A stretch of 41,602 nt of DNA from an uncultured Puniceicoccaceae bacterium (GTDB lineage Bacteria; Verrucomicrobiota; Verrucomicrobiia; Opitutales; Puniceicoccaceae), in the NCBI GenBank assembly GCA_964507815.1, contig CAZDRT010000001.1, positions 1 to 41,602 of the forward strand, read 5' to 3'. The notes beneath the pieces were generated by a model. That model saw only the letters and a program-made list of their open reading frames with translations, did no database searches and was not told the DNA's origin. How positions within the stretch are numbered: position 1 is the first letter of the stretch; each line of letters opens with the position of its first letter. Position numbers and translations under genes: made by a program. This document shows, piece by piece, positions 11,562-41,291 of this stretch.

Positions 11562-11572
11562 CCGGTTGAAAC

Positions 11573-13696
11573 ATGACGTACTTTTCTAAACTGGTCGCGT
11601 TGACTGGCCTCTATTTTCTCAGCGGTCAGGTCGGTTGGCTTTTCCCCGAGGCCTTTTACACGATTACTCCGCTCTGGCTTCCCGGCGGAGTGGGACTGGT
11701 TTTTCTGTACTTTTGGGGGTATCGGTACTTTCCCGCCGTTTGGATCGGCCTGTTTCTTCTGAATCTGATACACGGAATGGAAGGGCGCGAGTTCGCGGCT
11801 CTGACGGCGACCGCTTCGACCCTGGCGACGCTCACGGCCACCGTTCTTCTCCGGAACCGCGACTTCCACCCTTCGCTCAACCGGGTCAAGGATCTCTTCC
11901 CCCTCGCCTTTTCGATCATCATCCTGACTTCCCTCTCGGCACTGGGCGGTGCGCTGGCGGTATTCAATTTCACCGATTCGGACGAACTCGAATTTTTCCG
12001 CGTCTTTTTCACCTGGTGGGTGGGGGAGGGAATCGGTGCCCTGATCGTGGCCTCTCTCGGCTTCGTCTGGTCGGTGAATCCCGGCTTCAACCGGCAACGG
12101 CGGTTGGAAATGGCCACTTTGATCGTGGGAGTCATCGGCATCAGCATCCTTTGCTTCTACAACGACGGGTCGGATTGGGTGGAGCGGTTCCAGTTCTCTT
12201 TCGTCATTTTTCCCTCACTGGTCTGGGCCGCGCTCCGCTTCGGTCCCCACGGCACCACCCTCGCCACTTTGTTGGTCGGCGTGATCGCCTTGCTCGGCAC
12301 CGTCCAGGGCTACGGGGTTTTCAGTTTCGCCGACGCGGCACAAAATCTTTTCCTTTTGCAATCGTATCTCGCCGTCATCTCGCTGACCGGTCTCGTTCTC
12401 AGCTCGGCGTCGATTCAGCAGTCGGAGAATGAACTCGCTCTCCGCGAGGCCAACGAGCAACTGGAGCAATCCGTACGGTCCTTTTCGAGTACCGCGAAAG
12501 AGGCGCGGAAGGCGAACCAGAAGAAAAGTGAGTTTCTCGCATTGATGAGTCACGAACTCCGCAACCCTCTCAATGGGGTGGTCGGGTTCACCAGTCTCCT
12601 CATGAATACGGACCTGACCCGGGCGCAGCGGGATCATATCGCCATGATCCACTCCAGCGGGGAGACGCTTCTGGGCATGATCGACGAAATCCTCGATTTC
12701 AACCGGATCGATTCCGCCCGCCCCGACCTCGACGAGACGCCTTTCTCCCTGCGGCGCTTGATCGGCGATGTGGCGGATATCTTCCGGCTCCAGTCGGATC
12801 GGAAGGGAGTCGCCCTCTCGGTCGATTATCCGGACGATGTCGGCGACTTTTTCTCGGGCGATCACCAGCGGATTCGGCAGGTGCTGAACAATTTGGTCGG
12901 AAACGCCGTGAAGTTCACCGAACGCGGATCGGTGGTGATCCGGGTCGCCGAAGAGCCGTGGACGGATCCGAAGGAGGAGGGACGGATCGGGGTGCGCATG
13001 GAAGTGGTTGACACGGGAATCGGGATCGAAGAAGAGGAGGTTTCCCGGCTTTTCGCACCCTTCTCCCAGGCGAATCAGAGTATCGCCGGGCGTTTCGGTG
13101 GAACGGGCCTGGGGCTCGTGATCGCCAAGAATTTGACGGATGCCCTCGGTGGCCGGTTGACTCTGGAAAGCGAACCGGGCCGCGGGACCACTTTTGTGTT
13201 CACGGTGCCCATGATGCGATCCGACGCCGGGGCCGTGGTCGCCGAGGAGACCGAGACGCACTCCCGGGAATCCCTTTCCCGGTTCAAGGAGATCCCGCCC
13301 AGGCGGATTCTCGTCGCCGAGGATAATTCGACCAACCAGCGGGTCATTCAGCAGCTGTTGGACCGCCTCGGTCACAAGGCGACCGTCGTCGGCGACGGCC
13401 GCGAAGCGATCGAAGTGCTGAAAAAGGAAACCTTCGATGTCCTCCTTCTCGACATCCGCATGCCGGGCGTTGACGGATATACCATCGCCAATGCGGTGCG
13501 GGAGGGAAGGTGCGGTCTCGAAAAGCGGACGATTCCGATAGTCGCGGTCACCGCCCACGCCATGGCGGAGGACAGGGAGAAGACGCGGAAGGCCGGTATG
13601 GACGGGCACCTGACGAAGCCCTTCGATCTTGAAAAGCTGGCCCGGGCGCTCGCCGAAGTCGATTCGACCGCCGACACGGGCGAGAATTTGGGTTGA
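11573..13696 (+). CDS. Hybrid sensor histidine kinase (MASE1-HisKA-HATPase-REC)
   Basis: N-terminal TM region with PLWLPGG, WWVGE and WAALRFG; H-box MSHELRNPLNG; NAVKFT, DTGIGI and GGTGLGL; receiver with LLDIRMP and KP. Confidence 0.93.
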   Translation: MTYFSKLVALTGLYFLSGQVGWLFPEAFYTITPLWLPGGVGLVFLYFWGYRYFPAVWIGLFLLNLIHGMEGREFAALTATASTLATLTATVLLRNRDFHPSLNRVKDLFPLAFSIIILTSLSALGGALAVFNFTDSDELEFFRVFFTWWVGEGIGALIVASLGFVWSVNPGFNRQRRLEMATLIVGVIGISILCFYNDGSDWVERFQFSFVIFPSLVWAALRFGPHGTTLATLLVGVIALLGTVQGYGVFSFADAAQNLFLLQSYLAVISLTGLVLSSASIQQSENELALREANEQLEQSVRSFSSTAKEARKANQKKSEFLALMSHELRNPLNGVVGFTSLLMNTDLTRAQRDHIAMIHSSGETLLGMIDEILDFNRIDSARPDLDETPFSLRRLIGDVADIFRLQSDRKGVALSVDYPDDVGDFFSGDHQRIRQVLNNLVGNAVKFTERGSVVIRVAEEPWTDPKEEGRIGVRMEVVDTGIGIEEEEVSRLFAPFSQANQSIAGRFGGTGLGLVIAKNLTDALGGRLTLESEPGRGTTFVFTVPMMRSDAGAVVAEETETHSRESLSRFKEIPPRRILVAEDNSTNQRVIQQLLDRLGHKATVVGDGREAIEVLKKETFDVLLLDIRMPGVDGYTIANAVREGRCGLEKRTIPIVAVTAHAMAEDREKTRKAGMDGHLTKPFDLEKLARALAEVDSTADTGENLG

Positions 13697-13736
13697 AAGA
13701 CTCGCTTCCCTTCCCAACCCTGTCGGACTTTCATCC

Positions 13737-14936
13737 ATGATCATCGAACCAAAAGTCCGAGGCTTTGTCTGTGTGACCGCCCATCCCGAAGGGTGCGTGG
13801 CCAATGTGAACGAGCAAATCGAAGTAGCCCGCACTGTCGGGAAGACCGCCCGGGGGCCGAAGCGGGTGCTCGTGATCGGTTCATCGACGGGGTACGGCTT
13901 GTCCTCCCGGATCGAGGCGGCCTTCGGGTGCGAGGCCGACACGTTCGGAGTCTTTTTTGAAAGACCCGCCTCGAACGGGCGACCGGCCTCGGCGGGGTAT
14001 TACAACGCCGTTGCTTTCGAGGCCGAGGCCGCGCGACAGGGTCTGTATGCGGGCAGCCTGAACGGAGACGCCTTTTCCGACGAGTTGAAGGAGAGGGCCA
14101 TGGCGAGGATCAAGGAGGAGATGGGGCCGGTCGATCTCGTCGTTTACAGCCTCGCCTCGCCGCGGCGGACCGACCCCGCCGACGGCCAGACCTACAAATC
14201 CGTTCTCCGGCCGATCGGAAGCCGGTTCGAGAGCAAGACGGTGGACACCGACAAGGATGTCGTCCACGAGATCGCGATCGACCCAGCGGAAGAGGGCGAC
14301 GTCGAAGCCACGATCAAGGTCATGGGGGGGGAGGACTGGGAGCGGTGGATCGACGCCCTGGCCGGGCACGGTCTTCTGGCCGACGGTTTCCGGTCGGTCG
14401 CCTATTCCTATGTGGGTCCCGAACTGACCTGGCCCATTTACAAGAACGGGACGATCGGAAAGGCCAAGGAGGATCTCGACCGGGCGGCGGCCGGGATCGC
14501 CTCCCGCTATTCCGACCGGGGCGGGGCCGCCTATGTGGCGGTGAACAAGGCCGTGGTCACCCAGGCCAGTTCCGCGATCCCCGTCGTGCCCCTCTATATT
14601 TCCATTCTTTTCAAGGTGATGAAGGAGAAAGGGATCCACGAGGGGTGCATCGAGCAGATCGCCCGGCTGTTCCGCGACCGGCTGTACGCCGGTGGTCCGG
14701 TGGAACTCGGGCCGGACGGACGGATCCACGTGGACGATCTCGAGATGCGGGCCGACGTCCAGTCGGCCGTCGCCGAAGTCTGGCCCCGGATCGGAACGGA
14801 GAACCTGCGGGAACTTTCCGACTACGCGGGATACCAAGCCGATTTCCTGAAATTGTTCGGGTTCGGAATCGGGGGGATCGACTACGCCCGCGATATCGAT
14901 CCGGACACCGCCCTCCCCGGCGGGGCGGATTGGTAG
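13737..14936 (+). CDS. fabV: Enoyl-ACP reductase FabV / trans-2-enoyl-CoA reductase
   Basis: MIIEPKVRGFVCVTAHPEGC, IGSSTGYGL, NGDAFS, YSLASPRR, VMGGEDW and VTQASSAIP. Confidence 0.96.
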   Translation: MIIEPKVRGFVCVTAHPEGCVANVNEQIEVARTVGKTARGPKRVLVIGSSTGYGLSSRIEAAFGCEADTFGVFFERPASNGRPASAGYYNAVAFEAEAARQGLYAGSLNGDAFSDELKERAMARIKEEMGPVDLVVYSLASPRRTDPADGQTYKSVLRPIGSRFESKTVDTDKDVVHEIAIDPAEEGDVEATIKVMGGEDWERWIDALAGHGLLADGFRSVAYSYVGPELTWPIYKNGTIGKAKEDLDRAAAGIASRYSDRGGAAYVAVNKAVVTQASSAIPVVPLYISILFKVMKEKGIHEGCIEQIARLFRDRLYAGGPVELGPDGRIHVDDLEMRADVQSAVAEVWPRIGTENLRELSDYAGYQADFLKLFGFGIGGIDYARDIDPDTALPGGADW

Positions 14937-14957
14937 GATCGGGAGAATTTTCTTCTG

Positions 14958-15390
14958 ATGGCGGACCATGCGACAAGCTCTTCGGGGCGGCGAAACGCGT
15001 TCGCGGTCCTGTTTGACTGGGACGGGGTGGTCGTCGATTCGTCGCGGCATCACCTGCTCTCTTGGCGGGCTCTGGCCGACGAAATCGGGCGCTCGATTTC
15101 CGACGAGCAGTTCCGGGAGAGCTTCGGACAGATCAACAGGGTGATTATTCCGGATCTTTTCGGGTGGTCGCAGGATTCGGAGGAGATTGACCGTCTCGGG
15201 AATGCCCCCGGCGCGGTGCGTCGTGCTCGAGGACAGCCATCACGGGCTCCGGGCCGCGGCGGCCGGCGGCATGCGCGCCGTGGGGGTGTTGACCACCCAT
15301 CCCCGGGAGAAGCTCGGAAAAGCCGATCTTTTCGTCGGGAGTCTCGCCGATCTTTCCGTTGATCGCCTCCGGAGACTCGTTGAGAGCTGA
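14958..15390 (+). pseudogene. HAD-family (beta-PGM/CbbY-like) phosphatase with internal deletion and frameshift near 15200
   Basis: Motif I FDWDGVVVDS is in one frame and the C-terminus (MPPARCVVLEDSHHGLRAA..GM..VGV) in another. The central motif II/III region is absent. Confidence 0.85.
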
Positions 15391-15661
15391 AGCCCGCCGC
15401 CCACGGGTCAAACCACAAGTGCGTGGAATAAGGAAGGGATTTTTTCCAATTGTCCGGTGGTCTCCCGGGAACGATATTTGTTCGAATCCGCAGAGAAAAT
15501 CGCACCCTAGTTTCGGTCAGGATTGTTTCTATGATTGCACTTTGGTGTAAAGATTCGCGCATTGAAGTGCTATTGTGATTCGCAGTGGAAGACACTACTC
15601 TCTCCCTTTTGGCAAAAATCTCCACCACCTCTCCGAACTCACGCTTTACGGTTTCGCGAAT

Positions 15662-16327
15662 ATGACTATACTTCGATTATACGCAGGGGGACTCCTTCTC
15701 TTCGCGGCCTCGCTCAGCGGTGGGAATCTCCAACTCCAGCCGAAGGATACCGATGCGGGCTACCTGGCGCGGCTCCTTCTCAATGAAACTCCTTTTCCCG
15801 GTGAAAAGGGTTGGGTGAGCGAAGCGGACTCCAAGGCGACCATGTCCTCGATCCTCTGGGTGCTGAATTCCCGGATCCGGTATATTCCGGCGGGCTACCG
15901 GCAAACCGAGATCGCCACGGTGAAAACCTCCAACATCTTCGATGTCATCACCGCCGGCGGGGTTCATGGTCAATGCGAAGGCTTTTACCGCGATAGCTCC
16001 GGCAAGCTGGCAGCGGTCCCCCGCGTCGAGAAACGCATCCAATACTTGTCGAAAATCGGAGACAGTGGACCTCCCGGGAAATTCGCGAGCCTGATCAACT
16101 ATGCCCAGGGGCTCGCCAACTCTTATCTGGCCCAAGACATTTCCACGCGAGACCTGTTCGTGGATCTCCAGCTCATCTCTTCGACCCCGGTAACCGGTCG
16201 CGCCTATAGCTGGATGACCGATGCCCATCACTACAGCCCCGGAGGCGATTATATTCGAATCCCCGACTCGGATCGCGGAGCCCTGGGCGGCAACCGATTC
16301 TTCACCTTGAAAAAACGCACCCAATGA
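15662..16327 (+). CDS. Secreted protein, putative SleB/Hydrolase_2-like cell-wall hydrolase
   Basis: Signal-peptide-like MTILRLYAGGLLLFAASLSG. YLARLLLNE, ILWVLNSR, IFDVIT..GQ..GF and LGGNRFF resemble SleB motifs, but the similarity is remote. Confidence 0.55.
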   Translation: MTILRLYAGGLLLFAASLSGGNLQLQPKDTDAGYLARLLLNETPFPGEKGWVSEADSKATMSSILWVLNSRIRYIPAGYRQTEIATVKTSNIFDVITAGGVHGQCEGFYRDSSGKLAAVPRVEKRIQYLSKIGDSGPPGKFASLINYAQGLANSYLAQDISTRDLFVDLQLISSTPVTGRAYSWMTDAHHYSPGGDYIRIPDSDRGALGGNRFFTLKKRTQ

Positions 16328-17142
16328 ACCGCACTCTCACTCTCCTCTTTCTGCTACCCGGATGCCTGCTCGCGGAACTACCTGATCGCGAAACTCTCTT
16401 CGAAACGGCACGCCACCTTTACCGGTGGAATATGGATGAAACCCACCTGGAGCAAATGATCCAGAACGACGAGGTTGTTTTCTTCGTGCGGGAGATTCCC
16501 CTTGAACTGGATACAGGAGACCAAAGCGAAGCCGCCGAAGTCATCATCGGTGGAACCGGATTCGGGGCCGACCTGAAGAAATCGGATTACTCCATCCCGG
16601 AGATGGGACTCAAGGTAAAGGACAGCGAATTCAAAATTTTCAGCGTCTTTCCCTCCGATGCGACACCGGGCGATGTCGATTCTTACCAGGTTTTCCGCTA
16701 CCCCTATAAGGAGGTGGTGGATTACCTTTTCCAGACTCGGAGCGATCTCGCTTTTCCGGATGACAAAATGCTGGCCCGCCTGCGCGAAACCGTGGAAGAA
16801 ATGGTTTGGGAAGCTGCCGAACACAAAGGAATCCAGCTGGGCGAGGATCCGGAGATTCTGCATTTTTCAAGCCTTTCCCCCGTCTCCGATGAGATCTGGT
16901 TTTTCTGGGAACGGGCGAACCTCTTGATCCACTACGTATCGGAGTTTGATCTGGACACGGAAGAAGCCTGGGAGCACGCGGACATGGCCACGACCCTCTA
17001 CGATCTCGAAGAGCAGGTGGTAGTCTCACTCCACGAAGTTCCGGGCAGCAATGCCTACCTCACGCGGGATATGGCGGGCCGGGCTCTCTTCAATTGTCTC
17101 GTTCTCGGAAAACGGATCGAGGTCATCCCGAGTGAAGGCTAG
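16324..17142 (+). CDS. Acidic secreted hypothetical protein
   Basis: 272-aa ORF with signal peptide MNRTLTLLFLLPGCLLA and ATGA overlap with the upstream gene. No family recognised. Confidence 0.8.
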   Translation: MNRTLTLLFLLPGCLLAELPDRETLFETARHLYRWNMDETHLEQMIQNDEVVFFVREIPLELDTGDQSEAAEVIIGGTGFGADLKKSDYSIPEMGLKVKDSEFKIFSVFPSDATPGDVDSYQVFRYPYKEVVDYLFQTRSDLAFPDDKMLARLRETVEEMVWEAAEHKGIQLGEDPEILHFSSLSPVSDEIWFFWERANLLIHYVSEFDLDTEEAWEHADMATTLYDLEEQVVVSLHEVPGSNAYLTRDMAGRALFNCLVLGKRIEVIPSEG

Positions 17143-17155
17143 ACGCGATCGAGCC

Positions 17156-17734
17156 ATGGGGGCATTTCAACCGGCGGTATGGATCGTCACCTTCATTCTG
17201 GTTTGGAGCGCCTCCAACAGCCAAGTGCTGGCGGATACCGATCTAAGGCAGGAGTTACTATCGCCAGCCGAAACCGGCACGCCGCGGCAGACCCTGGAGT
17301 CCTTCCTCGAATCGACCCAAGAAATTGAAAATGCCTACCAGGAGATGGCTGCGGGAGGTTCGCGACCGGCTGACTTTGATTGGTTGATCGCACGTGGTCT
17401 CAGCACTCTCGACCTCAGCCAAATCCCGGAGTATCTGCTTCGCCAGAAAAGCCGGGAGAGCGCCCTCATGTTGCGGGAGGTCCTCGACCGAGTGGAACTC
17501 CCTGATTTGTCAACGATTCCCGGTCCGGGCGATTCGGAGATTCCGGCCACCTACACCATTCCCGGCACGGTCATCCAAATCACCCGAATCAAAGAGGGGC
17601 CAAATCAGGGCCATTTTCTCTTCTCGTCCGAAACGGTCGGCGCCGACGTGAAAACGGCGCAAAACTACCAGTTTGGAAATCCCCGGAATTCAGGCGATAA
17701 TGTCGCTGAAGAACGAAGAACATGCCTTATTTAA
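17156..17734 (+). pseudogene. N-terminal periplasmic fragment of a large MscS-family channel, truncated near 17640
   Basis: Signal peptide, TPRQTLESFL, LDLS..P, L.EVLDR and YTIPGT.I.I.RIKEGP..G.FLFSSETV, followed by unrelated sequence. No TM or channel domain. Confidence 0.65.
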
Positions 17735-17957
17735 GGCTTTTAGGAAGAAAAGGACGGCCAAGCTCACGCCACTTTCAAATCGGTAGAATCAGACCAGTTT
17801 CAGGCTGGCCGCGACAGAAACGACCACCCTGCAAATTCTTCAGGATCTGGAAGAAGCCGACATCCAACTCATCCCCCCGGCAAGGTGGATCCAGCGCGAA
17901 GGCGACGATCAGGCCTCTGAACAAAAAAAGAGTCCGGGAACAGGTTCGTTGGAAGGG

Positions 17958-18019
17958 GTTGGAGTCCCGCATTCATGCGGTCCCTTGCGGAATCAGGGGA
18001 CTGGCTAAATCCGGGACTT
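17958..18019. repeat. Inverted REP pair (family B) downstream of the RAYT
   Basis: GTTGGAGTCCCGCATTCATGCGGTC plus a degenerate inverted partner; a near-direct repeat of 18773-18842. Confidence 0.85.
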
Positions 18020-18060
18020 GTAGGGGGCACTTCGCTTTGGAACCCGATGTCCGAACGGAA

Positions 18061-18660
18061 TCAATCCCAGCCATCACCATAACGGTCGATGGGATAGTCT
18101 TGCCAAAATTGCTTAGCGGCTTCCAGTCCCACTGCCTGCAAGTAGGCTTTTGCACTGGACCAAGGCCAATCCTGCCACCGTCGAACGTAGCCATGTCTGA
18201 CTGGGTTGTGATGGATATAGTTCATCGAGGCAAAAAAATGTCTTTCCGATTTCTGCCGGGTCTCCGCTGATCCGTGAAAGACTTTTCTTCCACTCGTTCT
18301 CTCCTCTTGATTCCAAGTGCGCGACGAGCGACCGTGTAGTTTCCCCAAAACACTCCGGAGTGCCCTTATATCCTCGCAGCTCACTAATGCGTGGTAATGG
18401 TTGGGAAGGATCACATGAGCAAAAATATCGGCACAGTGTGGTTCCAGTGTCTGCAGAAGGGACTCCTCAAAACCACTTAAGCGATCCGTGGAGTGTGCGA
18501 TGTGGTCGGCATGTTCAAAGCAGGAGGCTGTGATCAGAAACCGGTCTACTTGACCATGACTTGTCCATACTGGGGGTCTTCGCCAAGAGCCTCCGCGCTG
18601 CACTCGTTGCCGGAAGACCTCTTCCCGCTGGGATTCTGTCATCTTGCGCCACGCATACAT
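18061..18660 (-). CDS. REP-associated tyrosine transposase (RAYT/TnpA-REP, Y1 HUH superfamily)
   Basis: HUH motif VILPNHYH, catalytic NYIHHNPVRHG and WPWSS; 199 aa from ATG 18660; REPs on both sides. Confidence 0.92.
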   Translation of the reverse strand: MYAWRKMTESQREEVFRQRVQRGGSWRRPPVWTSHGQVDRFLITASCFEHADHIAHSTDRLSGFEESLLQTLEPHCADIFAHVILPNHYHALVSCEDIRALRSVLGKLHGRSSRTWNQEERTSGRKVFHGSAETRQKSERHFFASMNYIHHNPVRHGYVRRWQDWPWSSAKAYLQAVGLEAAKQFWQDYPIDRYGDGWD

Positions 18661-18725
18661 TGGGTTGATGTTCGGACTCAGGACAGGAAGGGTCAAGGCT
18701 TGAGGCGGAGTCTCATAGGTGAAGG

Positions 18726-18842
18726 GACCGCCTGAAGGCGGAACTCCAACAGGGATCCCTGCGCGTGAAGGGGTTGGAGTCCCGCGTTTACGCGGTCCCT
18801 TGCGGCGAAATCGGGGGGACCGGCTAAAGCTGGGACTCCAAC
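18726..18842. repeat. Three alternating family-B REPs upstream of the RAYT
   Basis: Copies at 18726-18750 (-), 18773-18797 (+) and 18818-18842 (-); each is a GTTGGAG head plus a short GC palindrome. Confidence 0.9.
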
Positions 18843-18880
18843 GGGGAAGACGAACCAATTCCGAATTCCTCCGTTCACTC

Positions 18881-18969
18881 CTAAGAGCCGAACCAATCTT
18901 CGACCGGCAGTCCGGGAATTCCGTCGAAATGGCGCACGTTTCCAGTCGCCAAAATCAACCCGTGTTCAT
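18881..18969 (-). pseudogene. vapC: C-terminal remnant of a VapC/PIN-domain toxin
   Basis: The minus strand from 18967 reads EHGLILATGNVRHFDGIPGLPVEDWFGS*, a typical PIN C-terminus, right after an ATGA overlap with the antitoxin stop. Confidence 0.8.
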
Positions 18970-19222
18970 GTCAGCGGATACGGACGGTTGCAGACAGGAT
19001 CCCGATCCGGAAGTTTCAGGTCGTCATCCAGCGGCCCATACCGGGCCTGACACTCTTCTACGGTGTCCCAAACCGTTTCCTGCGAATCCTTCGAATCATA
19101 GGGAACGATTCGCACCAGAGGCTTGCCGTGCCGGGTCACTACCAGCGGCCCTTGCCCGCGGGCAACTTTTCCCCCAACTCGGAGAGGCGGTTCTTCGTCT
19201 CAAATACTCCCATGGACTTCAT
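18966..19222 (-). pseudogene. Phd/YefM-family antitoxin with a 1-nt frameshift
   Basis: MKSMGVFETKNRLSELGEK, then after a -1 shift at GGGGGAAAAGTT (~19165-19176), VARGQGPLVVTRHGKPLVRIVP...PYPLT*. Confidence 0.82.
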
Positions 19223-19284
19223 TTTTGGAATTTTAGCTGTCTAGCTGGACTTTGCAAGGAGAAAAGTCCGCCGGGGAAGACGAA

Positions 19285-19434
19285 GGGTGCAATTTCGATC
19301 AATGCTCGAAACGAGACGTAGGGCCGCCGCTCGCGGCGTGCCGCGTAGGGGTCCGGCACTATGCGTTCGGCGGCATCGCGCGCGCGAGCCCTACGACCTG
19401 CAACTAAATTCTGACATCAATCGAAATTGCACCC
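19285..19434. mobile_element. 150-bp MITE-like element with 20-bp terminal inverted repeats enclosing a GTAG REP doublet
   Basis: GGGTGCAATTTCGATCAATG versus the right-end reverse complement GGGTGCAATTTCGATTGATG (18/20); interior GTAGGGCCGCCGCTCGCGGCGTGCCG ... CGAGCCCTAC (19318-19394). Confidence 0.75.
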
Positions 19435-19656
19435 GACTTGGGCCGAAAACACCGAAATCGCTATCGCGCTTCCGCTCCGGGGAATTTGGATGTCTCGGAC
19501 TTGGTTTCTAAAAGTAGAAGGGCGGCCTTGGCCCCCGCTGCGGTGCCTCAGCCTTCCCGCCGCTCGGAATCGGACGGCAAGCCGACCGACCACGGGGAAC
19601 GACCGAAGGCATTTTCCTCTTTCCTCTGAACACCATTCCCGCTAGGCACTCCGCCG

Positions 19657-20350
19657 ATGAAGAAGCCGATTTTTCTAATATTGATGTTTCTACCGCTAGT
19701 CCTGAAGGCGGCTGATTCATCCACGGAATCGTCCGATACGGATGGCACAGGCAGCCAATCATCGCAAGAAAACCAGGGGTCCGATTCCGACTCAACGTGG
19801 ATCGACGGCACGCATGACTGGCTGTATAACGAAGCCCACGGCAAGGTCGTCTGGTTCGACAATCAGTTTGTTCCCGCAGGAAAGGAACCCTTGAAAGTCC
19901 CCCCTTCGCGATTCCGTCTTGGGCTTTACGGGGAGTTTGATTTCGGGGCTGCTGATAGTTTCAAGCTCAAGCCCATCGTTGACCTGGGCACGGATGTCAA
20001 ACTCCCGAATCTTGAGCGGCGCCTGCGCGTTTTCGTATCCACTCGGGATCAATCCGCTCTTCCCGGGGAATCCACGACTGAATCCAATGACGGTCTTCGC
20101 ATTGGTGCCTCCCGCAATTTTTTCAAGAACTGGGACACCTCCGCCGGGGTCAAGGCGGATTGGCCACCGGAGGCTTTCGTAAACGCCCAATGGGCTCCCA
20201 CTTATCAAACGGGAGAACACTGGACGCTCTATCCGAACGCCAAGGTATTCTGGGATAGCAAGGAAAAGATCGGATTTCTGGCCGCGATGACCGCCGACTA
20301 CTGGCTCAATCGATGGATCTTCCGGCAGACCCTTTCCTACGAGCTGACGC
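19657..20350 (+). pseudogene. Exported/outer-membrane beta-rich protein, probably C-terminally truncated
   Basis: Signal peptide, Ser/Asp linker, WID.TH, WFD.QF and amphipathic strands (KLPNLERRLRVFV). After ~20350 the ORF runs antisense to another fragment and stops looking protein-like. Confidence 0.55.
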
Positions 20351-20765
20351 TTATGCGCAAGGGTCCTCTCTACAAAGATTTGGCGGGTGGCCGACTCCTA
20401 CAGCTCCGAACTGTTCTACGAGGATCTGCACTTCGATGCGGGAATGGATTTCCGCTTTTTCATCCGCAACAGCGTCGTCCGGGAGCATGTCCGCCTGCTC
20501 GAAGTTTTCGACATCGATATGGGCGGGCAGACTCCACATGGCTCCCGTGGCATAATCGACGGCGAAACCGATCAGACCGAGGACGTTCGCCCAGTAGATC
20601 GGGGAAATCCCCGCCTTCAGCTCGAAGGATTCGTCGGCCGTGCTGATCGTATAGGTCTCCCGGTGAAAATCGTGGCCCTGCGATTTCAGGCGCACAATGT
20701 CAGGGGTTGTGCCCGCGTAAATGAATTCTCCACGGCTGTCCCGGATCTCGTAGGGAACGCTTTCC
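20351..20765 (-). pseudogene. C-terminal fragment of a lipoprotein/PEGA-like protein lacking its N-terminus
   Basis: The open frame reads ESVPYEIRDSRGEFIYAGTTPDIVRLK...YWANVLGLIGFAVDYATGAMWSL. There is no start codon or signal sequence before the MFS gene. Confidence 0.5.
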
Positions 20766-20780
20766 AGGAGGCACCGGATT

Positions 20781-22268
20781 TCAGGTCGGTTGCTCGTTGG
20801 TGGCTTTTTGTTCCTCGTCCAGCGTTTCGAGATTCAATCCCTTGGTCTCGATGCCGAACCAGGCGGTGATTGCCGCGCCCACGAGGGAGGTGCCGACCAG
20901 GATGTAGAGAAGATTGGCCGTTCCGATATCGGTGAGGAGAATCGGGAAGAGGAAGGCCGTCGTGACGGCGCCGATCTTGGCGAAGGAGGCAGCGAAGCCG
21001 GCGCCCTTGCCCCGGACACGGGTCGGGAACACTTCCCCGGCGAGGAGGTAGGTCATCGAGTTGGGACCCAGATTGGTCATGAAGTTAAAGAGCATGAATC
21101 CGGCGAAGATCAGGAACATGTTGGTCGAGCCGTCCGGGCGGAGGGAGAGGGCGGCCAGAAGCAACCCGATCGCGCACCCGATAAAGCCGAGGACCTGCAT
21201 GCGGATGCGCCCGACTTTATCGACCAGAAGAATGGCACCGACGAATCCGACGACCAGGAGGATGTCCATGATCGCGGCACCCTTGGCGGCGAGCATGTCG
21301 TCGTGGAGGACGGAGGCGAGATTGTGTCCGCCTCCCTTCTGGCCGATCATTGTGGCGAGAATCGTCGGAGTGAAGATGCCGATCCCGTACGTTCCAAGGT
21401 CCTGCAAAAACCAGGGGACGGAGGCGAGAATGGTCGAGCGCCGGTTTTTCCCTTTGAAGAGCGCGCCGTAGGAACCCTCGGCCTTGGCTTCAACCGTATC
21501 CTCGGGGGCTTCGGTCAGCTTGATTTCGGTCGGGTATTTGGGGTGGCGGTTCAGCAGGGAACGGAGCGAGTGGGCCGCCTCTTCGGTTCTCCGGCGGGTC
21601 CGCAACCAGTGGGGACTCTCGGGGATGAAAAAGCGGAGGAAGACGATGACCACGCCAATCGGAATCACGCTTCCGTACATCCACCGCCAGGAGTTGGCGT
21701 CGCCGTGGAACTTCAGAATGGCGTAGCCCAGGACGGTTCCGAACAACGCTCCGACGGCCTGGAAGGCGAAGGCGCTCAGAACCAGCCGCCCGCGCACCCG
21801 GCTCGGAATGCTCTCGGAAATCACCATGTGGGCGGTCGGGTAGTCGCAGCCGAGGGCCGCGCCGACCCCGAAAAGGAGGATAAGGAACGGCCAGAAGGAG
21901 GGGCTTAGGGCGACTCCGATCAGGAACAGGGTGAATAGCACCATTTCGACGATGAACATCCGTTTGCGTCCGAAAACGTCCGCCATGCCTCCCAATAGAC
22001 TCGCCCCGACGAGAATCCCGAAGAGAGGAGCCGCTCCGACCATTCCCTTTTGGACATCGGTCAACCCGAAGTCCAAGGTTAGGAGCGGGATGGCCACCCC
22101 GGTCATGAAGACCACCATTCCCTCGAAAAACTTTCCGGCGGACGCCAGCATCCAGATGCGTTTCTGCATGCCGGTGATGCTCGCGTCGGCGACGGCGGTT
22201 CCGTCCTTCCAGAACGGAGTTTCATCGATGTAGGACTGGACGGATCGCGGTTCGTTGGTTGAGTTCAT
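20781..22268 (-). CDS. MFS transporter (sugar porter / metabolite:H+ symporter type)
   Basis: Motif A GGMADVFGRK, ISE..P.RVRG, PESP.WL, DKVGR and EVFPT.VRG; about 12 TM segments. Confidence 0.93.
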   Translation of the reverse strand: MNSTNEPRSVQSYIDETPFWKDGTAVADASITGMQKRIWMLASAGKFFEGMVVFMTGVAIPLLTLDFGLTDVQKGMVGAAPLFGILVGASLLGGMADVFGRKRMFIVEMVLFTLFLIGVALSPSFWPFLILLFGVGAALGCDYPTAHMVISESIPSRVRGRLVLSAFAFQAVGALFGTVLGYAILKFHGDANSWRWMYGSVIPIGVVIVFLRFFIPESPHWLRTRRRTEEAAHSLRSLLNRHPKYPTEIKLTEAPEDTVEAKAEGSYGALFKGKNRRSTILASVPWFLQDLGTYGIGIFTPTILATMIGQKGGGHNLASVLHDDMLAAKGAAIMDILLVVGFVGAILLVDKVGRIRMQVLGFIGCAIGLLLAALSLRPDGSTNMFLIFAGFMLFNFMTNLGPNSMTYLLAGEVFPTRVRGKGAGFAASFAKIGAVTTAFLFPILLTDIGTANLLYILVGTSLVGAAITAWFGIETKGLNLETLDEEQKATNEQPT

Positions 22269-22485
22269 GGTAGTAGGAGTGCTGATGGTGAGTATTTGTA
22301 GTGAGATGAGACCGTTTGGAAATCACCCGAAAATGGATTCCGCAAGGACGATCTGACTATGTGACGAAATTGTGACACAACGGAGGCTCCGTAGAGTTGG
22401 GGCAAGAACCGGAAGGCCCCCGGTCCCCGATCATCGGCGAACACCAAATCCCTACGCTTCAAGGAGAACTCTTGGCGCCGGCTCT

Positions 22486-22547
22486 TCTCTCTTCCGTGAC
22501 TGCCTCCTGGAATCACGGAAGGCCTCCAAAGTAGCCGGGTTGCTTCA
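22486..22547 (+). repeat. Direct repeat unit 1 (hairpin plus GTAG REP head), downstream of the NTPase
   Basis: TCTCTCTTCCGTGAC...TCACGGAAGG...GTAGCCGGGTTGCTTCA matches 24365-24427. Confidence 0.8.
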
Positions 22548-22639
22548 GCGCCCGGTTTTCGCATTGGAAGGAAATGTTCCGGATCGCCTCAGAGGTGCCG
22601 ATTCGCTTTGGACCGGGGTTGTCTAAGACCGACAGGCTG

Positions 22640-24136
22640 CTAGGAGCTGCGGTACAGGTTAACCACCCGTTGACTCTGCTCTTGCCGGACAAAATCCAAA
22701 GTCAATTTCGGAATCGTGAAACTGCCCGCATCGCCACTGGTATTCTGGCAGTGGCGCTGGATGACCGCGTAGAGAAATTTGAAGGCATCTCTGGGCTGGT
22801 GCATCTGGTCGAGGGCATCCACGATGTCCCGTCCATCCACATTTTCATCAAACAGGTCCTCGAGTTGACCGATCGGTTCCGAAGTTTCCGTCTGGCAATT
22901 CTGGAAGCGTGTTGTACACAGATCGTACAGGCTGGCTCCGGTCCAGCGAAGCGGGTTGACCAGATTTTGCTTATCCAGCCGCGCCTGCTGTCTGAATTCG
23001 GTATCGGCCTTATCGAGCAGATGTCCGAGTTCGAGCGGCAGCAGCATCTTCGCGCCGAACCCCTCCTGTTGCAGGAATTTATTGTTCAGCAGGGGCCAGA
23101 CCAGCTTCCGCATGCGTTTGCCATCACTATTGATCAAGGCGGGCTCATCCACCCGGTCGATGAAAACGGTCATCGATTCATAACCGATCCGACGGATAAT
23201 CTGCAAAAACCTTTTCGTACACTCGTAGCGTTTGTCCTGGTCGTTTTTTCCGGGGAGCAATCGCTTCAGACTATCGCGGTTCGGTAGATTCCACAGAGCC
23301 CTGGTAAATGCGGCTTTCCCGCGGGGCACCGCCCGCAGCTCGCGACAAGCCCGACGCGCCTGAAGCCCCTTTGCAAATGAGCGAGCCAACCAGGACAGGC
23401 CGAAACCGATGAATCCGGCGCCGCCCAAAGCCGCCAATAGCTTCCATTCCAAGGACTCGGCATCCAAAAAATACCAATAGGCGCCGGCGGCAAGTCCAAC
23501 AGCGGCAAAACCGGCGGTCAATGCGACGTGGCCTTTGCGGCTGATCAAACGCCCAACCCGCAAAAAGCGCTTTACGCGTTCCCAGCGTATCTCACGCTCC
23601 CCGTGGCGCGGGTCATCATAAAGCAAGGCCAAAACCGCCAGGTCCATCCGCAAGTCAGCCGTCATCCCGCGAACGCTCTTCCGCAGTGTGTGGAGCCCGG
23701 CCTCCTTTGAACCGGACAGCAGGCTATCGACAAGCTCGGTAACCGCCAGCGAAAGAATCGCATCCTGGTGATCCGTAAGCCTGATTTCATCCAGGCAAGC
23801 CGCCGGCTTTCCCGGGCTGATCGAATGCGAGAGCTGATCCAGAAAAGGGTTGAGATCGTCGTAGCGAACCGCCCATACCCGTCGATCATGGTGGGTGCGG
23901 TTATATTCCTTCAGGCGCTGCTCCATCATCAGCCGCATGGCCGTTTTGCCACTGCCTTTCTCGCCGAAGACGATCGAGGTGCTCGGAACCGGCGGTTGTC
24001 CGAAAATCTTTTGAAAGTCGGGATGCGTGACCGTGTTTTCCATGGTCCGTGCATAGACCGTATCGCTCAGGGCCTCCTCCGCCTGAAAAGGATTCTCGGA
24101 AAGGTGCCAGTGCTCGAAAAATTTTTGTATGTTCAT
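22640..24136 (-). CDS. P-loop NTPase with two TM helices between Walker A and B (KAP-like architecture)
   Basis: N-terminal LSENPF, Walker A GEKGSGKT, hydrophobic hairpin HVALTAGFAAVGLAAGAYWYFL / WKLLAALGGAGFIGFGLSWL, and Walker B-like TVFIDRVD. Confidence 0.8.
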   Translation of the reverse strand: MNIQKFFEHWHLSENPFQAEEALSDTVYARTMENTVTHPDFQKIFGQPPVPSTSIVFGEKGSGKTAMRLMMEQRLKEYNRTHHDRRVWAVRYDDLNPFLDQLSHSISPGKPAACLDEIRLTDHQDAILSLAVTELVDSLLSGSKEAGLHTLRKSVRGMTADLRMDLAVLALLYDDPRHGEREIRWERVKRFLRVGRLISRKGHVALTAGFAAVGLAAGAYWYFLDAESLEWKLLAALGGAGFIGFGLSWLARSFAKGLQARRACRELRAVPRGKAAFTRALWNLPNRDSLKRLLPGKNDQDKRYECTKRFLQIIRRIGYESMTVFIDRVDEPALINSDGKRMRKLVWPLLNNKFLQQEGFGAKMLLPLELGHLLDKADTEFRQQARLDKQNLVNPLRWTGASLYDLCTTRFQNCQTETSEPIGQLEDLFDENVDGRDIVDALDQMHQPRDAFKFLYAVIQRHCQNTSGDAGSFTIPKLTLDFVRQEQSQRVVNLYRSS

Positions 24137-24364
24137 GGCATTGCTGTGTGACGAATTTCGGATTCAGAAAGAGGAACGGTCAGACGTTTCCGAAGATTGT
24201 ATCCGATGCTTCCAAAGCCGCGTCAAGAAAATCCGGATTCTTTCTCGTGAAGGTATTTTAATGCGCTTTTGTAAAAGTGGTCGGGTGGCCTGGGCCCCCG
24301 GTCCGTTGGAATCTTGAACAAGGCGGAAAGGATCGGACGGCAATCGTCTCCGCCCCTCCGAGGC

Positions 24365-24427
24365 TCTCTCTTCTGTGACTATCCGCTGGAATGACGGAAG
24401 GTCTTCCTCCGTAGCCGGGTTGCTTCA
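24365..24427 (+). repeat. Direct repeat unit 2, abutting the right terminal motif
   Basis: TCTCTCTTCTGTGAC...TGACGGAAGG...GTAGCCGGGTTGCTTCA; the last 17 nt are identical to unit 1. Confidence 0.8.
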
Positions 24428-24516
24428 AACTCCCCGCACTTGTAGTTGCACCCGCCTGGCCGGATGTCCGGCGCGTTTGATTTGATTTCGGCGAAGGCAG
24501 CCGTTAGGCCATCCGG

Positions 24517-24921
24517 GTGGAAATCACCTTGACGACACCCTCCATTCTCTTCCCGGCGGTCAGCCTCCTTATGCTGGCCTACACGAATCGCTTTCTCGCG
24601 ATCGCCGCCATCACGCGCAACTTGCACGAGCGCTACCGCGCCGAGGGCAGCCCCTCCGTCAAGCGCCAGATCGACAACCTGCGGCGGCGGCTGGTCCTTA
24701 TCCGCCGGATGCAGGCCACGGGAATCATGAGCCTGATCGCCTGTATCCTGGCGGTGGTGTTTCTCTTTCTGAAAATCCGCTTGCTCGGAGAGGCTCTCTT
24801 CGGTCTCGCCCTGGTCTTCATGCTTGCCTCGCTTCTCCTCTGCTTCCGCGAAATCAATCTCTCCGGGCGGGCTCTTGAAATACAACTCGAAGACCTCGAA
24901 AATCATGAGAATGCGGAATAA
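24517..24921 (+). CDS. DUF2721-like small membrane protein
   Basis: EITLTTPSILFPAVSLLMLAYTNRF, QI..LRRR..LI and SL....EI.LS..AL; GTG start. Confidence 0.8.
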   Translation: MEITLTTPSILFPAVSLLMLAYTNRFLAIAAITRNLHERYRAEGSPSVKRQIDNLRRRLVLIRRMQATGIMSLIACILAVVFLFLKIRLLGEALFGLALVFMLASLLLCFREINLSGRALEIQLEDLENHENAE

Positions 24922-25009: not shown

Positions 25010-25126
25010 CGCTTCGCGGATGAATCGCAAATTGAACCCGATTCCTCGGGTCCTTGGGTATGGTCTATAGATCCCAGGCTGCTCGCGTGGTTGCGTCGGC
25101 CCGTTTTCCGGTTCTACTGTGTGACC

Positions 25127-26098
25127 ATGGAAAACACGATTGCGGACAAATCCCGGGTCAGCTGGGCGCGCGGGCGCCTGGACGCTCTCGCGGCCAACAT
25201 CGGCTCCGTGATCCGGGGCAAGGATCCCGTGATCGACCAGGTCCTCGTCTGCGTGGTGGCCGGAGGCCATCTTCTCGTCGAGGACCGTCCGGGCGTCGGG
25301 AAGACCACGCTCGCTTACTGTCTGGCCCGTTCGCTTTCCGGGGAGTTTTCCCGGATCCAGTTTACCAGCGACCTGCTGCCCTCCGATGTTCTCGGCGTCT
25401 CCGTTTTCGACGAGCGCTCGCGCGAGTTCGTTTTCCGGAAGGGCCCGATTTTCGCGAACATCGTCCTCGCCGACGAGATCAACCGGACAACGCCGAAAAC
25501 GCAGTCCAGTCTCCTCGAGGTCATGGACCGGTCCAAGGTGTCGATCGACGGCGGCACCTACGGGGTCGGCCGGCCGTTTATGGTCTTCGCGACCCAGAAC
25601 CCCATCGATTTCGAAGGCACGTTTCCTCTCCCCGAGAGTCAGATGGACCGCTTCCTCATGCGGATCTCCATCGGCTACCCCGATCAGGAGGCCGAAATGG
25701 AAATCCTGCGGGACCCGAATCTCGCCTACGACGACCTCCGGATCGAGCCGGTCCTGACCACTCCGGAGTTGATCGAGATCCAGGAGCTGGCGTTGTCCGT
25801 GTTTCTCGAGGAATCGATCGAGCAGTATCTTCTGCGGATCGTCCAGGCCACCCGGACCGAGACGGAGTTCCGCTCGGGGATCAGCACGCGCGGCCTACTC
25901 GCCCTGAAGCGCGCGATCCAGGCCCGGGCGGTCTGCCAGGGCCGCGACTTCGCCATCCCCGACGATGTCTTCGCCACGGCCCTGCCGACGCTCGTCCACC
26001 GCCTGGTCCCGCGGAGAGCGACCGCCGATGCGATCGAGGAGCGGAAGACCGTCCAGGGCATTCTGCGGAACATTATCGAGGAAATCCCGGCCCCCTGA
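25127..26098 (+). CDS. moxR: MoxR-family AAA+ ATPase
   Basis: GGHLLVED.PGVGKT, RIQFTSDLLPSD, LADEINR..PKTQS.LLE.M and ATQNP..EGTFPLPESQMDRF. Confidence 0.95.
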   Translation: MENTIADKSRVSWARGRLDALAANIGSVIRGKDPVIDQVLVCVVAGGHLLVEDRPGVGKTTLAYCLARSLSGEFSRIQFTSDLLPSDVLGVSVFDERSREFVFRKGPIFANIVLADEINRTTPKTQSSLLEVMDRSKVSIDGGTYGVGRPFMVFATQNPIDFEGTFPLPESQMDRFLMRISIGYPDQEAEMEILRDPNLAYDDLRIEPVLTTPELIEIQELALSVFLEESIEQYLLRIVQATRTETEFRSGISTRGLLALKRAIQARAVCQGRDFAIPDDVFATALPTLVHRLVPRRATADAIEERKTVQGILRNIIEEIPAP

Positions 26099-33816: not shown

Positions 33817-34201
33817 GGAGGTAACCGCAACTGCGTGGAGAAAAATCGTAAAACATCGCTGTTTTGAAATGGGCCGATATTCCATCGGTTGAGGGAGGGC
33901 GGCTGCCGTGCCACGGCGTGGCAGTGTCTCGAGTCGGTTGCTATCAGCGGATGGGACTGGGGGCAAACACTGGACGAAAAGAAGTTTTGCGAAGACGGGT
34001 CCTCAGCCGCCGCATTGCGGGAAAGAGAATGGAAAGCCACGGAATAAATTCGGCGGCGCGGGCATCTTCCGGAAGTGCATCGGATCCCCCTCCGACGTAT
34101 CGCGGCGGCTGGGGACAGCCGCCCTCCCGCCGTAGTTCGGCGGCGTACGCACTATTATCGAAAAATTTTGATATTCCCTCCTCGCACTTGTGGTTACACC
34201 C
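33817..34201 (+). mobile_element. 385-bp MITE-like composite element (full copy)
   Basis: Ends GGAGGTAACCGCAACTGCGTGGAG and CTCCTCGCACTTGTGGTTACACCC are imperfect inverted repeats. The interior has a split REP (33893-33905 and 34000-34012) and an inverted intact REP (34103-34128). Four related copies occur in the window. Confidence 0.88.
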
Positions 34202-40204: not shown

Positions 40205-40405
40205 GGGTGTAACCACAAGCGCGTGGAGGGAAATTGAAAGGCGCGGAATAGATTCGGCGGCGCGGGAATCTTTCGGAAGTGCATTGGATCTTTTCCGACG
40301 TATCGCGGCGGCTGAGGACAGCCGCCCTCCCGCCGTAGTTCGTCGGCTCATGCACAATTATCCGATCAATTTCGGTATTCCCTCCACGCACTTGTGGTCA
40401 CACCC
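40205..40405 (+). mobile_element. 201-bp MITE-like element with 28-bp terminal inverted repeats
   Basis: GGGTGTAACCACAAGCGCGTGGAGGGAA versus the reverse complement of 40378-40405 (26/28). The interior corresponds to the right half of 33817-34201 with one intact REP (40306-40331). Confidence 0.92.
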
Positions 40406-40974: not shown

Positions 40975-41291
40975 GAAAATCGCACGATTTCATCGATTTT
41001 GGAATGGGATCCTATTTCTCGGCTGAGGGAGGGCGGCTGCCGTGCCACGGCGGAGCAAGATCTCCAGTCGGTTGCTGTCAGCGGGATTTGACTGGGGGGC
41101 GGCCACAGAACAATACGAAGTTTTGCGAAGACGGGTCCTCAGCCGCCGCATTGCGGGTAAGAGATTGGAAAGGCACGGAATAAATTCGGCGGCGCGGGAA
41201 TCTTCCGGAAGTGCATCGGATCTTTTCCGACGTATCGCGCGGCGGCTGAGGACAGCCGCCCTCCCGCCGCCACCCACTTGTGGTTACCTCC
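40975..41291 (+). mobile_element. Copy of the composite MITE-like element without a clear left end
   Basis: Matches 33840-34130; split REP at 41027-41039 and 41136-41148; intact REP at 41240-41265; right end CACTTGTGGTTACCTCC. Confidence 0.85.

Follow-up and report, generated by a model that had tools for sequence, protein, structure and literature searches.

The window, the whole 41,602-nucleotide stretch of DNA analysed here, contains about 9 kb of DNA that two copies of one TIR motif face from either side, next to a HAD-family hydrolase gene on the left and a DUF2721 gene on the right. The features of this locus and two short elements farther along the window are:

14958..15390 (+), HAD-family hydrolase, disrupted by the loss of ~260 bp within the gene; intact in the relative G006 and in the run X2 strain
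15405..15467 (+), left MITE stump: 24-bp TIR followed by C-type interior for ~40 bp
15662..17142 (+), pair of genes (221 and 272 aa) without a Pfam, NCBIfam or PADLOC hit
17156..17635 (+), 5' gene fragment, cut by the following element; orthologous to an MscS mechanosensitive channel gene of G002
17636..17816, unrelated second MITE-like element of ~181 bp, 5-6-bp target duplication; three more copies at 93-99%
18061..18660 (-), RAYT (REP-associated tyrosine transposase; NF047646, 73.6 bits, cut-off 80)
19657..20340 (+), truncated gene keeping 227 aa of ~360 aa in G002/G003
20781..22268 (-), MFS sugar-type transporter, in 5/5 relatives at 70-83% aa identity
22640..24136 (-), P-loop ATPase-like protein, patchy (2/150 other genomes of the order)
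24360..24427, incomplete copy of a REP-like module present at high copy number, adjoining the right stump; fuller copy at 22488-22596
24418..24453 (-), right MITE stump: 24-bp TIR and ~12 bp matching D-type ends
24517..24921 (+), DUF2721 gene, beyond the right motif and within a low-GC, non-syntenic stretch
25127..26098 (+), MoxR AAA ATPase, first gene of a conserved MoxR-DUF58-transglutaminase operon
33817..34201, 385-bp mosaic MITE with B and A ends and a REP doublet inside, target duplication gone
40205..40405, 201-bp MITE of the same family, target duplication gone

The sequence-only reading had described 15405..24453 as a cargo segment with an accessory interior that encodes a RAYT and neither a DDE transposase nor an integrase. 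A profile scan agreed on the proteins: it returned the RAYT, and no ORF scanned from the interior matched a DDE or integrase family. The term accessory fits the interior except for the MFS gene, which has a core-like GC3 of 0.81 and is found again (93% nt) on contig C167. The inner gene cluster is present in the relatives G002 and G003 in differing orders, and the 221/272-aa pair is adjacent in both without TIR termini; 20 kb of G003 contain no TIR at ≤6 mismatches, and G002 gives a single 6-mismatch hit. The P-loop ATPase-like protein bears a weak likeness to Sll1717 ATPases and to the DS41_1 anti-phage model, far below the cut-offs, and a PADLOC scan of five inner proteins for a defence role gave no hit. 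DUF2721 recurs in part (96% nt) on C203 and, being patchy itself, has a weak match in 1/10 relatives.

We then compared the two termini. The copies at 15405-15428 (+) and 24430-24453 (-) each have three mismatches to the consensus and are identical to one another at 19/23 positions; the motif scan thereby recovered the inverted ~23-bp motif first noticed at 15405 and 24431-24453, and likewise its presence at the ends of the 201-bp and 385-bp elements. In 100 shuffles of the window the TIR motif was never matched. Each facing end is truncated after 36-63 bp: The left stump, with two mismatches within the first seven bases of its TIR, aligns to C-type ends for 63 bp and then stops, while the right stump finds its best matches in D-type ends over 36 bp (compare the 210-bp D-E MITE) and runs into the REP module. 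A left C-type and a right D-type end are paired in 0/51 short elements of this genome, and a D end is paired with E in 19/20 short elements that have one; this mismatch is not absolute evidence, because chimeric short elements (A-E, D-other) occur. A flank-match search for the lost partners returned, for the left end, a single hit with one mismatch (C67), which is within the 9-24 that chance would give, and no match for the right end.

The sequence-only reading had suggested looking for an autonomous element with such ends, and one exists in G006: an ISKra4-family IS of 1,449 bp (G006:C99:1-1449), whose copy begins at its contig end. Further loci with shared ends are L106-L108 and L147. The TIR thus terminates an IS of 1.4-1.5 kb that encodes a DDE transposase of Mutator type, in which D113, D188, D210-x2-H213 and E302 are invariant across seven aligned sequences (C/D-x2-H signature). 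Its inverted repeats measure 24 bp, and a 9-bp repeat flanks a 46% relative (L111) and also flanks MITEs; the C-type ends resemble its right end (IRR). The second frame alone scores 200-201.5 bits against the NF033572 profile (cut-off 205; model positions ~70-422), compared with 69.7 for ISLre2 and 20 for ISH6. A 112-aa ORF precedes this frame, the switch to -1 falling in an A8-A9 run, an arrangement kept in three 70% relatives. Other candidates for the partner were rejected: IS256 (PF00872) has no match in this genome, DDE_Tnp_1 (PF01609) none here or in G006, and the ISKra4-like elements of G003, at 44% identity, are not the partner because they lack the TIR motif. This genome's assembly yielded no transposase copy of the partner IS, tblastx of the G006 element against it gave no interior hit, and the reading frames behind its unpaired ends contained no evident transposase by eye.

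The available portions of Guerillot et al. 2014 (PMC3942029) divide the p-MULT4/ISKra4 family into the groups ISKra4, ISMich2 and ISAzba1, with inverted repeats of 18-39 bp and duplications of 8 or 9 bp, and describe ISMich2 as having two ORFs with a -1 frame change at an A run. As far as these portions allow a comparison, our element is like the ISKra4 family in its 24-bp repeats starting GGG, 9-bp duplications, DDE triad with D-x2-H and length of ~1.45 kb, and like ISMich2 in its two ORFs with a -1 shift of frame between them; its end, however, differs from two ISMich2 rows that begin GGGAGC and resembles the ISKra4-group ISLesp4 (GGGTGTG, 9-bp DR), so that either group placement is tentative. 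The best plasmid match to the transposase (41%) comes from an Opitutaceae organism in Table S1 of that study, where its p-MULT4 transposase stands without delimited ends in the part of the table at hand; no IR among the rows listed contains the terminal decamer of the partner IS.

In the 3.62 Mb of this genome, 401 TIR ends at ≤5 mismatches were counted, one per 9 kb. They form 51 short pairs of 57-543 bp, 15 of which have a 9-bp target duplication within two mismatches (10 exact); 128 ends are unpaired, and 169 look towards a contig end no more than 600 bp away (the assembly has 372 contigs). The short elements are small, multicopy, bounded by TIRs, devoid of a transposase, in part duplication-flanked, and share their ends with an autonomous IS, as expected of MITEs. 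In a collection of genomes the motif occurs at ≥36 loci, at least 26 of them from records titled Puniceicoccaceae; among the matches listed, the remaining 10 have no second end and no evident transposase. We conclude that this is a large MITE family tied to an ISKra4-family transposase, and that the ends of this transposase clade are thereby established. The family is apparently undescribed, though ISfinder may hold a named element with such ends, and no published account of ISKra4-derived MITEs of this kind is apparent from titles and the beginnings of abstracts. To judge from the sections available of Delihas 2011 (PMC3184786), it resembles the bacterial MITEs Correia, Nezha, Chunjie and MaeMITE in being small, multicopy and intergenic with IS-matching TIRs and target duplications, but differs in its interiors, which are mosaics of several REP families.

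These REP families flank RAYT genes elsewhere in the genome. One REP lies just inside a TIR in 73/103 copies, at a fixed offset in 24/70 ends, and the core motif of the REP-like module is present 69 times. The RAYT of the segment is flanked by its own REP family, which lies inside TIR-bounded DNA in 0/14 copies. We therefore rejected the RAYT as mobiliser: the termini are not REPs of the resident RAYT, whose REPs stay outside TIR-bounded DNA. REPIN/RAYT systems (PMC3116915, PMC2817692) share with the segment a RAYT with flanking REPs and abundant REP doublets; unlike them, the segment has as its termini DDE-type TIRs, the family of which makes 9-bp duplications.

Is the 9-kb segment itself a mobile unit? 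A true composite would require that the transposase once synapsed both ends and moved the 9 kb between them, the flanks having eroded since, and the cognate TIRs are indeed inverted and correctly oriented at both ends, the left one sits on a GC step, and the IS family has been active enough to leave exact 9-bp duplications. There is also precedent: the consulted parts of PMC4133298 (Tn3-derived TIMEs) and PMC3184786 describe TIME-COMP, MIC, IMU and NFM2-MITE, in which genes lie between non-autonomous ends with GC below the host and no transposase inside, transposition having been shown for TIME-COMP and IMU. According to the same parts, however, these composites have whole elements at both ends and flanking duplications, whereas the segment has neither whole miniature elements nor a matched left and right end, only two stumps, each TIR with three mismatches, and no empty site or second copy. 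As noted from the sequence alone, no target-site duplication is visible, 5/9 flank bases being different; this is weak evidence by itself, because 36/51 short elements also lack one. Among long inward pairs on the same contig, duplications within two mismatches occur in 0/40, and the largest duplication-bounded element found is 543 bp. A second copy of the unit was found neither in this genome nor in five relatives, and no joint among the 15 of 18 listed skips the segment (contigs show presence only).

Nor are such pairs more frequent than chance. Adjacent long pairs of unpaired ends fall into 6 +-, 10 ++, 4 -- and 3 -+, and the six inward pairs compare with a permutation mean of 5.76 (P=0.54); GC around orphan ends is not biased towards either side, being lower inside in 52% of cases (n=79). 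Chance bracketing, which the sequence-only reading had named as fatal to its proposal, is thus what we observed. We consider a composite origin very unlikely. The proposed container family from ~85 bp to ~9 kb stands as far as non-autonomous, REP-carrying elements are concerned; its extension to 9 kb, with this segment as a container, is not supported.

The borders point in the same direction. GC is 0.565 within the segment and 0.635 on each side; in the best fit with two change-points, the left border coincides with the motif, at 15400 (range 15300-15450 at 3 log-likelihood units), and the right border is at 25150 (25100-25850), ~700 bp outside its motif, and synteny with G006 resumes at 25084. 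The claimed switch of composition and gene content at the motifs therefore applies on the left and fails on the right, where accessory DNA extends 630-700 bp beyond the end. What speaks against a mere chance remnant on the left is that the GC change-point lies within 50 bp of the TIR, which ties this TIR to the joining of accessory DNA at HAD. HAD is followed by FKBP in 4/5 relatives (G003, G005, G006 and G007), MoxR is preceded by other genes in 5/5, and the DNA right of 24453 never adjoins HAD in the five. The suspected empty HAD-DUF2721 site was accordingly absent among the relatives compared, with very close strains partly sampled, and the right breakpoint lies away from the motif; a very close strain may still hold an empty site, because the closest genome is only 87% identical and heavily rearranged.

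In G006, a MITE remnant stands directly after HAD within the HAD-FKBP adjacency. This remnant, the patchwork interior of the segment with its nested elements and the uptake of REP modules by mosaic MITEs would suit a single small MITE beside HAD that was swollen by inserted genes, REPs and elements without being a vehicle. Against such a sink, the G006 TIR ahead of FKBP aligns, TIR included, with C7:2091-1218 of this genome, where FKBP, on a different contig, is preceded by a MITE of its own: it is with FKBP that the HAD-side MITE's partner remained. Since, moreover, the DNA right of 24453 is not HAD's ancestral neighbour, the end sub-types are mismatched and duplication-bounded elements remain so short, we regard a sink as very unlikely.

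An artefact of assembly or binning from repeats might be suspected from the fragmentation into contigs, the many TIR ends near contig ends and the 93-96% second copies of several inner genes. In run X1, however, 11000-16935 and 22567-24497 are each covered by one contig, at 0-1 differences and even depth near 10, which checks the assembly but not independence, because X1 may be the source sample; runs X2 and X3, from other studies, hold the same inner genes. An artefact is thus most improbable. In the near-identical strain of X2, with inner genes at ~99%, 15411 is joined to 15600 and most of the left TIR is gone, as seen in one contig with a 25-nt side, under the 30-nt caution level. Runs X4-X8 contain small shares only and were not counted as habitat or strain evidence.

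Taken together, the facing motifs are very probably what is left of two small MITEs that inserted separately, on either side of what is now a shuffled accessory region, rather than the ends of a 9-kb mobile unit, so that the alternative of two independent half-elements, already raised by the sequence-only reading, fits best. We propose that short MITEs, in some cases with REP doublets inside, were spread in trans by the transposase over a few hundred positions between genes. Their flanks would later have been exchanged or lost as copies recombined with one another or transposed intramolecularly or by one end, and this would account for the 128 ends without a partner, many of which sit at rearrangement joints. 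The left stump would mark one such joint, at which the ancestral HAD-FKBP adjacency was broken in this genome. The genes of 15.4-25.1 kb presumably came together bit by bit, out of an older cluster at the level of the genus, a copy of a core transporter, the RAYT and the ATPase, and appear to be decaying, with three truncated genes and a second MITE; as a unit, the segment is predicted to be immobile.

Even if real, a 9-kb non-autonomous cargo element would only modestly extend the known MITE composites. As a caution, inverted pairs bracket accessory regions by chance, because there is one end per 9 kb. What the family does reveal is that REP doublets can be carried within MITEs of the DDE type, and it indicates that gene order in the genus turns over very fast. 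Between genomes 87% identical, synteny breaks every 3.8 kb. An initial test, in which 15/137 internal break sides lay ≤100 bp from a TIR (1.2% of random positions), was too lenient, breaks and TIRs both being intergenic, and was therefore repeated on gene gaps; synteny with G006 is broken in 21/22 scored TIR-holding gaps, nearly every one, versus 56/101 TIR-free gaps of ≥60 bp (Fisher p=2e-4). MITE-type repeats have been linked to poor synteny between close relatives in the sections seen of PMC3184786. It is conceivable, though we hold it only tentatively, that the ISKra4-type ends constitute a genome-wide shuffling system, in which a trans-acting Mutator-type transposase pairs any nearby ends and thereby excises, inverts and moves gene-sized blocks, the 9 kb included, while the MITEs spread REPs of several RAYT families without a transposase of their own. 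If true, such end-pairing would help to explain why gene order breaks so often between genomes of 87% identity.

The interval at 15405–24453 had been taken by the sequence-only reading for a 9-kb container bounded by MITE ends. Its termini carry the terminal inverted repeat (TIR) motif in inverted orientation, each with 3 mismatches to the consensus and with 19/23 bases identical between them; the 385-bp and 201-bp elements of the window end in the same motif, and shuffled versions of the window contained matches in 0/100 cases. The features concerned are:

14958–15390, HAD hydrolase gene, ~260 bp lost between 6-bp repeats (intact in G006, a relative's genome, and in the strain of sequencing run X2)
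15405–15428 (+), left TIR
17636–17816, member of a second MITE-like family (181 bp, 5–6-bp duplication, 4 copies found; TGTC...GACA-type ends in its other copies)
22640–24136, P-loop ATPase-like gene of patchy distribution, weakly resembling Sll1717 ATPases and the DS41_1 anti-phage model (94.5 bits, cut-off 370); a possible defence gene
24430–24453 (−), right TIR

The interior contains a RAYT, an MFS transporter, the ATPase-like gene and a number of genes that match no family, and none of the interior reading frames scanned matches a DDE or integrase family, just as had been read from the sequence. GC content is 0.565 versus 0.635 for 9 kb on each flank; among 681 genomic windows of 9 kb, ~5% have values this low. 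The left GC change-point (15400) falls on the motif, a coincidence that is real but general to TIRs, and the right one lies at 25150 (25100–25850), synteny resuming at 25084. Motif positions, orientation and RAYT stand as described, whereas the claimed switch of composition at both motifs holds on the left only, the right border (~25150) lying beyond the motif at 24453. Unpaired TIRs show no tendency towards lower GC inside (n = 79). Single contigs of run X1, possibly the source sample, cross both junctions without notable differences; that the arrangement is an artefact is scarcely credible.

In the 3.62-Mb genome (G000, 372 contigs) the motif was matched 305 times at ≤3 and 401 times at ≤5 mismatches, one per 9 kb. 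These 401 ends comprise 104 in short pairs, 169 facing a contig end ≤600 bp away and 128 that are unpaired. Adjacent inward-facing pairs number 57: 51 span 57–543 bp and 6, including the 9-kb segment, span 1.1–16.6 kb. Long adjacent pairs among unpaired ends are oriented +− (6), ++ (10), −− (4) and −+ (3), and shuffling of their strands gave a mean of 5.76 inward pairs versus the 6 observed (P = 0.54). Consequently, an inverted bracket of 9-kb size is expected by chance, and bracketing by so frequent a motif fails as the sign of a container. A 9-bp target duplication is retained by 15/51 short pairs at ≤2 mismatches (10 exact) and lost in 36/51; around long inward pairs it was found in 0/40. 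A true composite that moved as a 9-kb unit, which the inverted ends might bring to mind, is very unlikely.

Moreover, the two ends appear from their alignments to be stumps of two different elements: the left end (15405) follows the C-type for 63 bp and then stops, and the right end (24453) follows the D-type for 36 bp, after which a REP module begins. D ends have an E partner in a uniform 210–212-bp MITE in 19/20 short pairs, and C–D pairing occurs in 0/51 short pairs, although chimeras of some other end types do exist. The interior holds three truncated genes and the nested second MITE of 181 bp; a single MITE swollen by insertions into it, which such nesting might recall and which would here join a C to a D end, is highly improbable. 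We consider it very probable that the segment is a decaying accessory patchwork. Directly observed are cognate IS ends, duplications in the family, stump structure and a broken ancestral adjacency. A trans-acting transposase would spread short MITEs, and one-ended or intramolecular events together with recombination between copies would reshuffle their flanks; the left joint would have been created at a MITE, and the right stump would be an independent D–E insertion lying ~650 bp inward of the true border.

In the relatives G003, G005, G006 and G007 the gene after HAD encodes FKBP; in G002 other genes take this place. The HAD–FKBP spacer is short and motif-free in G003, G005 and G007; in G006 it holds a MITE remnant, and the TIR left in this can be aligned, together with FKBP, to G000 contig C7, where a 99-bp MITE precedes FKBP. 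G000 has therefore broken this adjacency at a MITE site. Since HAD precedes FKBP in four relatives and other genes in G002, genes upstream of MoxR are unrelated in all five relatives and DUF2721 has a single weak match among 10 relatives, the empty HAD–DUF2721 site sought in the five relatives compared is absent. No joint skipping the segment occurs among 15 joints listed of 18 (four runs, 11–29 kb). A near-identical strain is present in run X2: its HAD gene is intact, and its RAYT, 19657 gene and ATPase match at ~99%. One X2 contig joins 15411 to 15600, most of the left TIR missing, a joint that is weak because one side measures only 25 nt; the 188-bp difference from the window may be a loss in that strain or a gain in the window. 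The inner genes have separate histories: the first inner gene pair and the 19657 gene also cluster in G002 and G003, but differently arranged and without motif termini, the MFS transporter occurs in 5/5 relatives and the ATPase in 2/150 other genomes of the order. Second copies (93–96%) of 16879–17140, 20749–22377 and 24468–24813 lie on contigs C72, C167 and C203 at similar X1 depth, and two of them begin just beyond a TIR, at distances of 4 and 74 bp; they may stem from an old duplication or from uptake from a sister lineage.

Gene order turns over very fast between G000 and G006 (collinear chains, median 2.1 kb): 23 stretches of G006, 429 kb in all, of which 319 kb align at a median identity of 86.7%, contain 85 synteny breaks not due to contig ends versus 24 collinear joints. 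Of the scored gene gaps holding a TIR, 21/22 are breaks, versus 56/101 TIR-free gaps of at least 60 bp (p = 2e-4) and 90/217 of all TIR-free gaps, in a test that uses crude gene calls, scores gene loss as a break and finds most breaks TIR-free today. MITEs may simply survive best between operons.

The MITE family is real and ISKra4-related. Its motif occurs in 2/30 relatives, G003 (47 matches) and G006 (31), and record titles among the matches listed suggest Puniceicoccaceae as its range. The autonomous element with the same ends, which the sequence-only reading had marked for searching, exists in G006 (C99:1-1449): two motif copies bound a full transposase-coding ISKra4-family IS with two ORFs. 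The second frame alone scores 200–201.5 bits on NF033572 (ISKra4, cut-off 205), and a 112-aa ORF reads into it through a −1 frameshift on an A run (A8–A9 slippery site). Metagenome relatives (L106–L108, L147; 70–73% identity) have ends identical in kind, with the A run in L106–L108; in remoter elements the ends are related and of the GGGTG kind, a 9-bp duplication flanking one of them, and the GGGTG-ended clade of 1.4–1.5-kb elements comes from sediment and mat metagenomes. All 7 aligned sequences keep the DDE triad and the D-x2-H signature unchanged. Guerillot et al., in the sections concerned, describe these families as having IRs of 18–39 bp, repeats of 8–9 bp and circular intermediates, and ascribe the two-ORF frameshift to the ISMich2 group (PMC3942029). 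The G006 element shares this −1 frameshift with that group, whereas its ends look closer to an ISKra4-group row of Table S1 (PMC3942029). Its left end matches B-type and its right end C-type MITE ends of G000. An ISKra4-type cognate transposase was not found in the G000 assembly; because this is fragmented, the gene may be unassembled or lost. Titles and abstract openings on ISKra4 MITEs, MITE–REP–RAYT, Puniceicoccaceae repeats and nested MITE/REPIN, a scope outside which most subscription papers and ISfinder fall, contain no description of the family.

The REP flanking the C93 RAYT has 73/103 copies ≤600 bp inside a TIR (such DNA is 4.2% of the genome) and sits at offset 77 in 24/70 A-type ends (74–78 in 28); this constancy across many loci implies that the REP would have been copied with the MITE. 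Other REPs lie ≤600 bp inside a TIR in 50/102, 15/69, 8/84 and 3/35 copies, and that of the window's own RAYT in 0/14. Duplication-bounded elements of 263–543 bp hold REP-like palindromes; the proposal of non-autonomous REP carriers thus holds for elements of up to ~550 bp, and their extension to 9 kb is not supported. Upstream of MoxR in G006 (L015:1293-1657), a REP palindrome is interrupted by an inserted 365-bp MITE of the TIR family, and 9 bp of REP sequence are duplicated. G000 has 28 RAYT-model matches, several with distinct flanking REP families (relatives: 7–40). Both ends of the window's contig (40855–41602 and 1–187) are likewise pieced together from these MITE and REP modules, and an extra TIR lies at 41268–41291. 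In C140 and C303 of G000, stretches of 4,853 and 1,176 bp recur internally at 100% identity, so that these contigs are probably assembly artefacts or circles.

Taken with chance-level pairing, 0/40 duplications, no empty site and a right border off the motif, the 9-kb container is not supported. Composites built from miniature elements are described, in the portions of the sources drawn on, for IMU and NFM2 (PMC3184786) and for TIME-COMP, whose 2.5- and 3.9-kb forms have duplications and shown transposition (PMC4133298). Because such composites are already known, the container reading, if true, would extend a known kind rather than found a new one.
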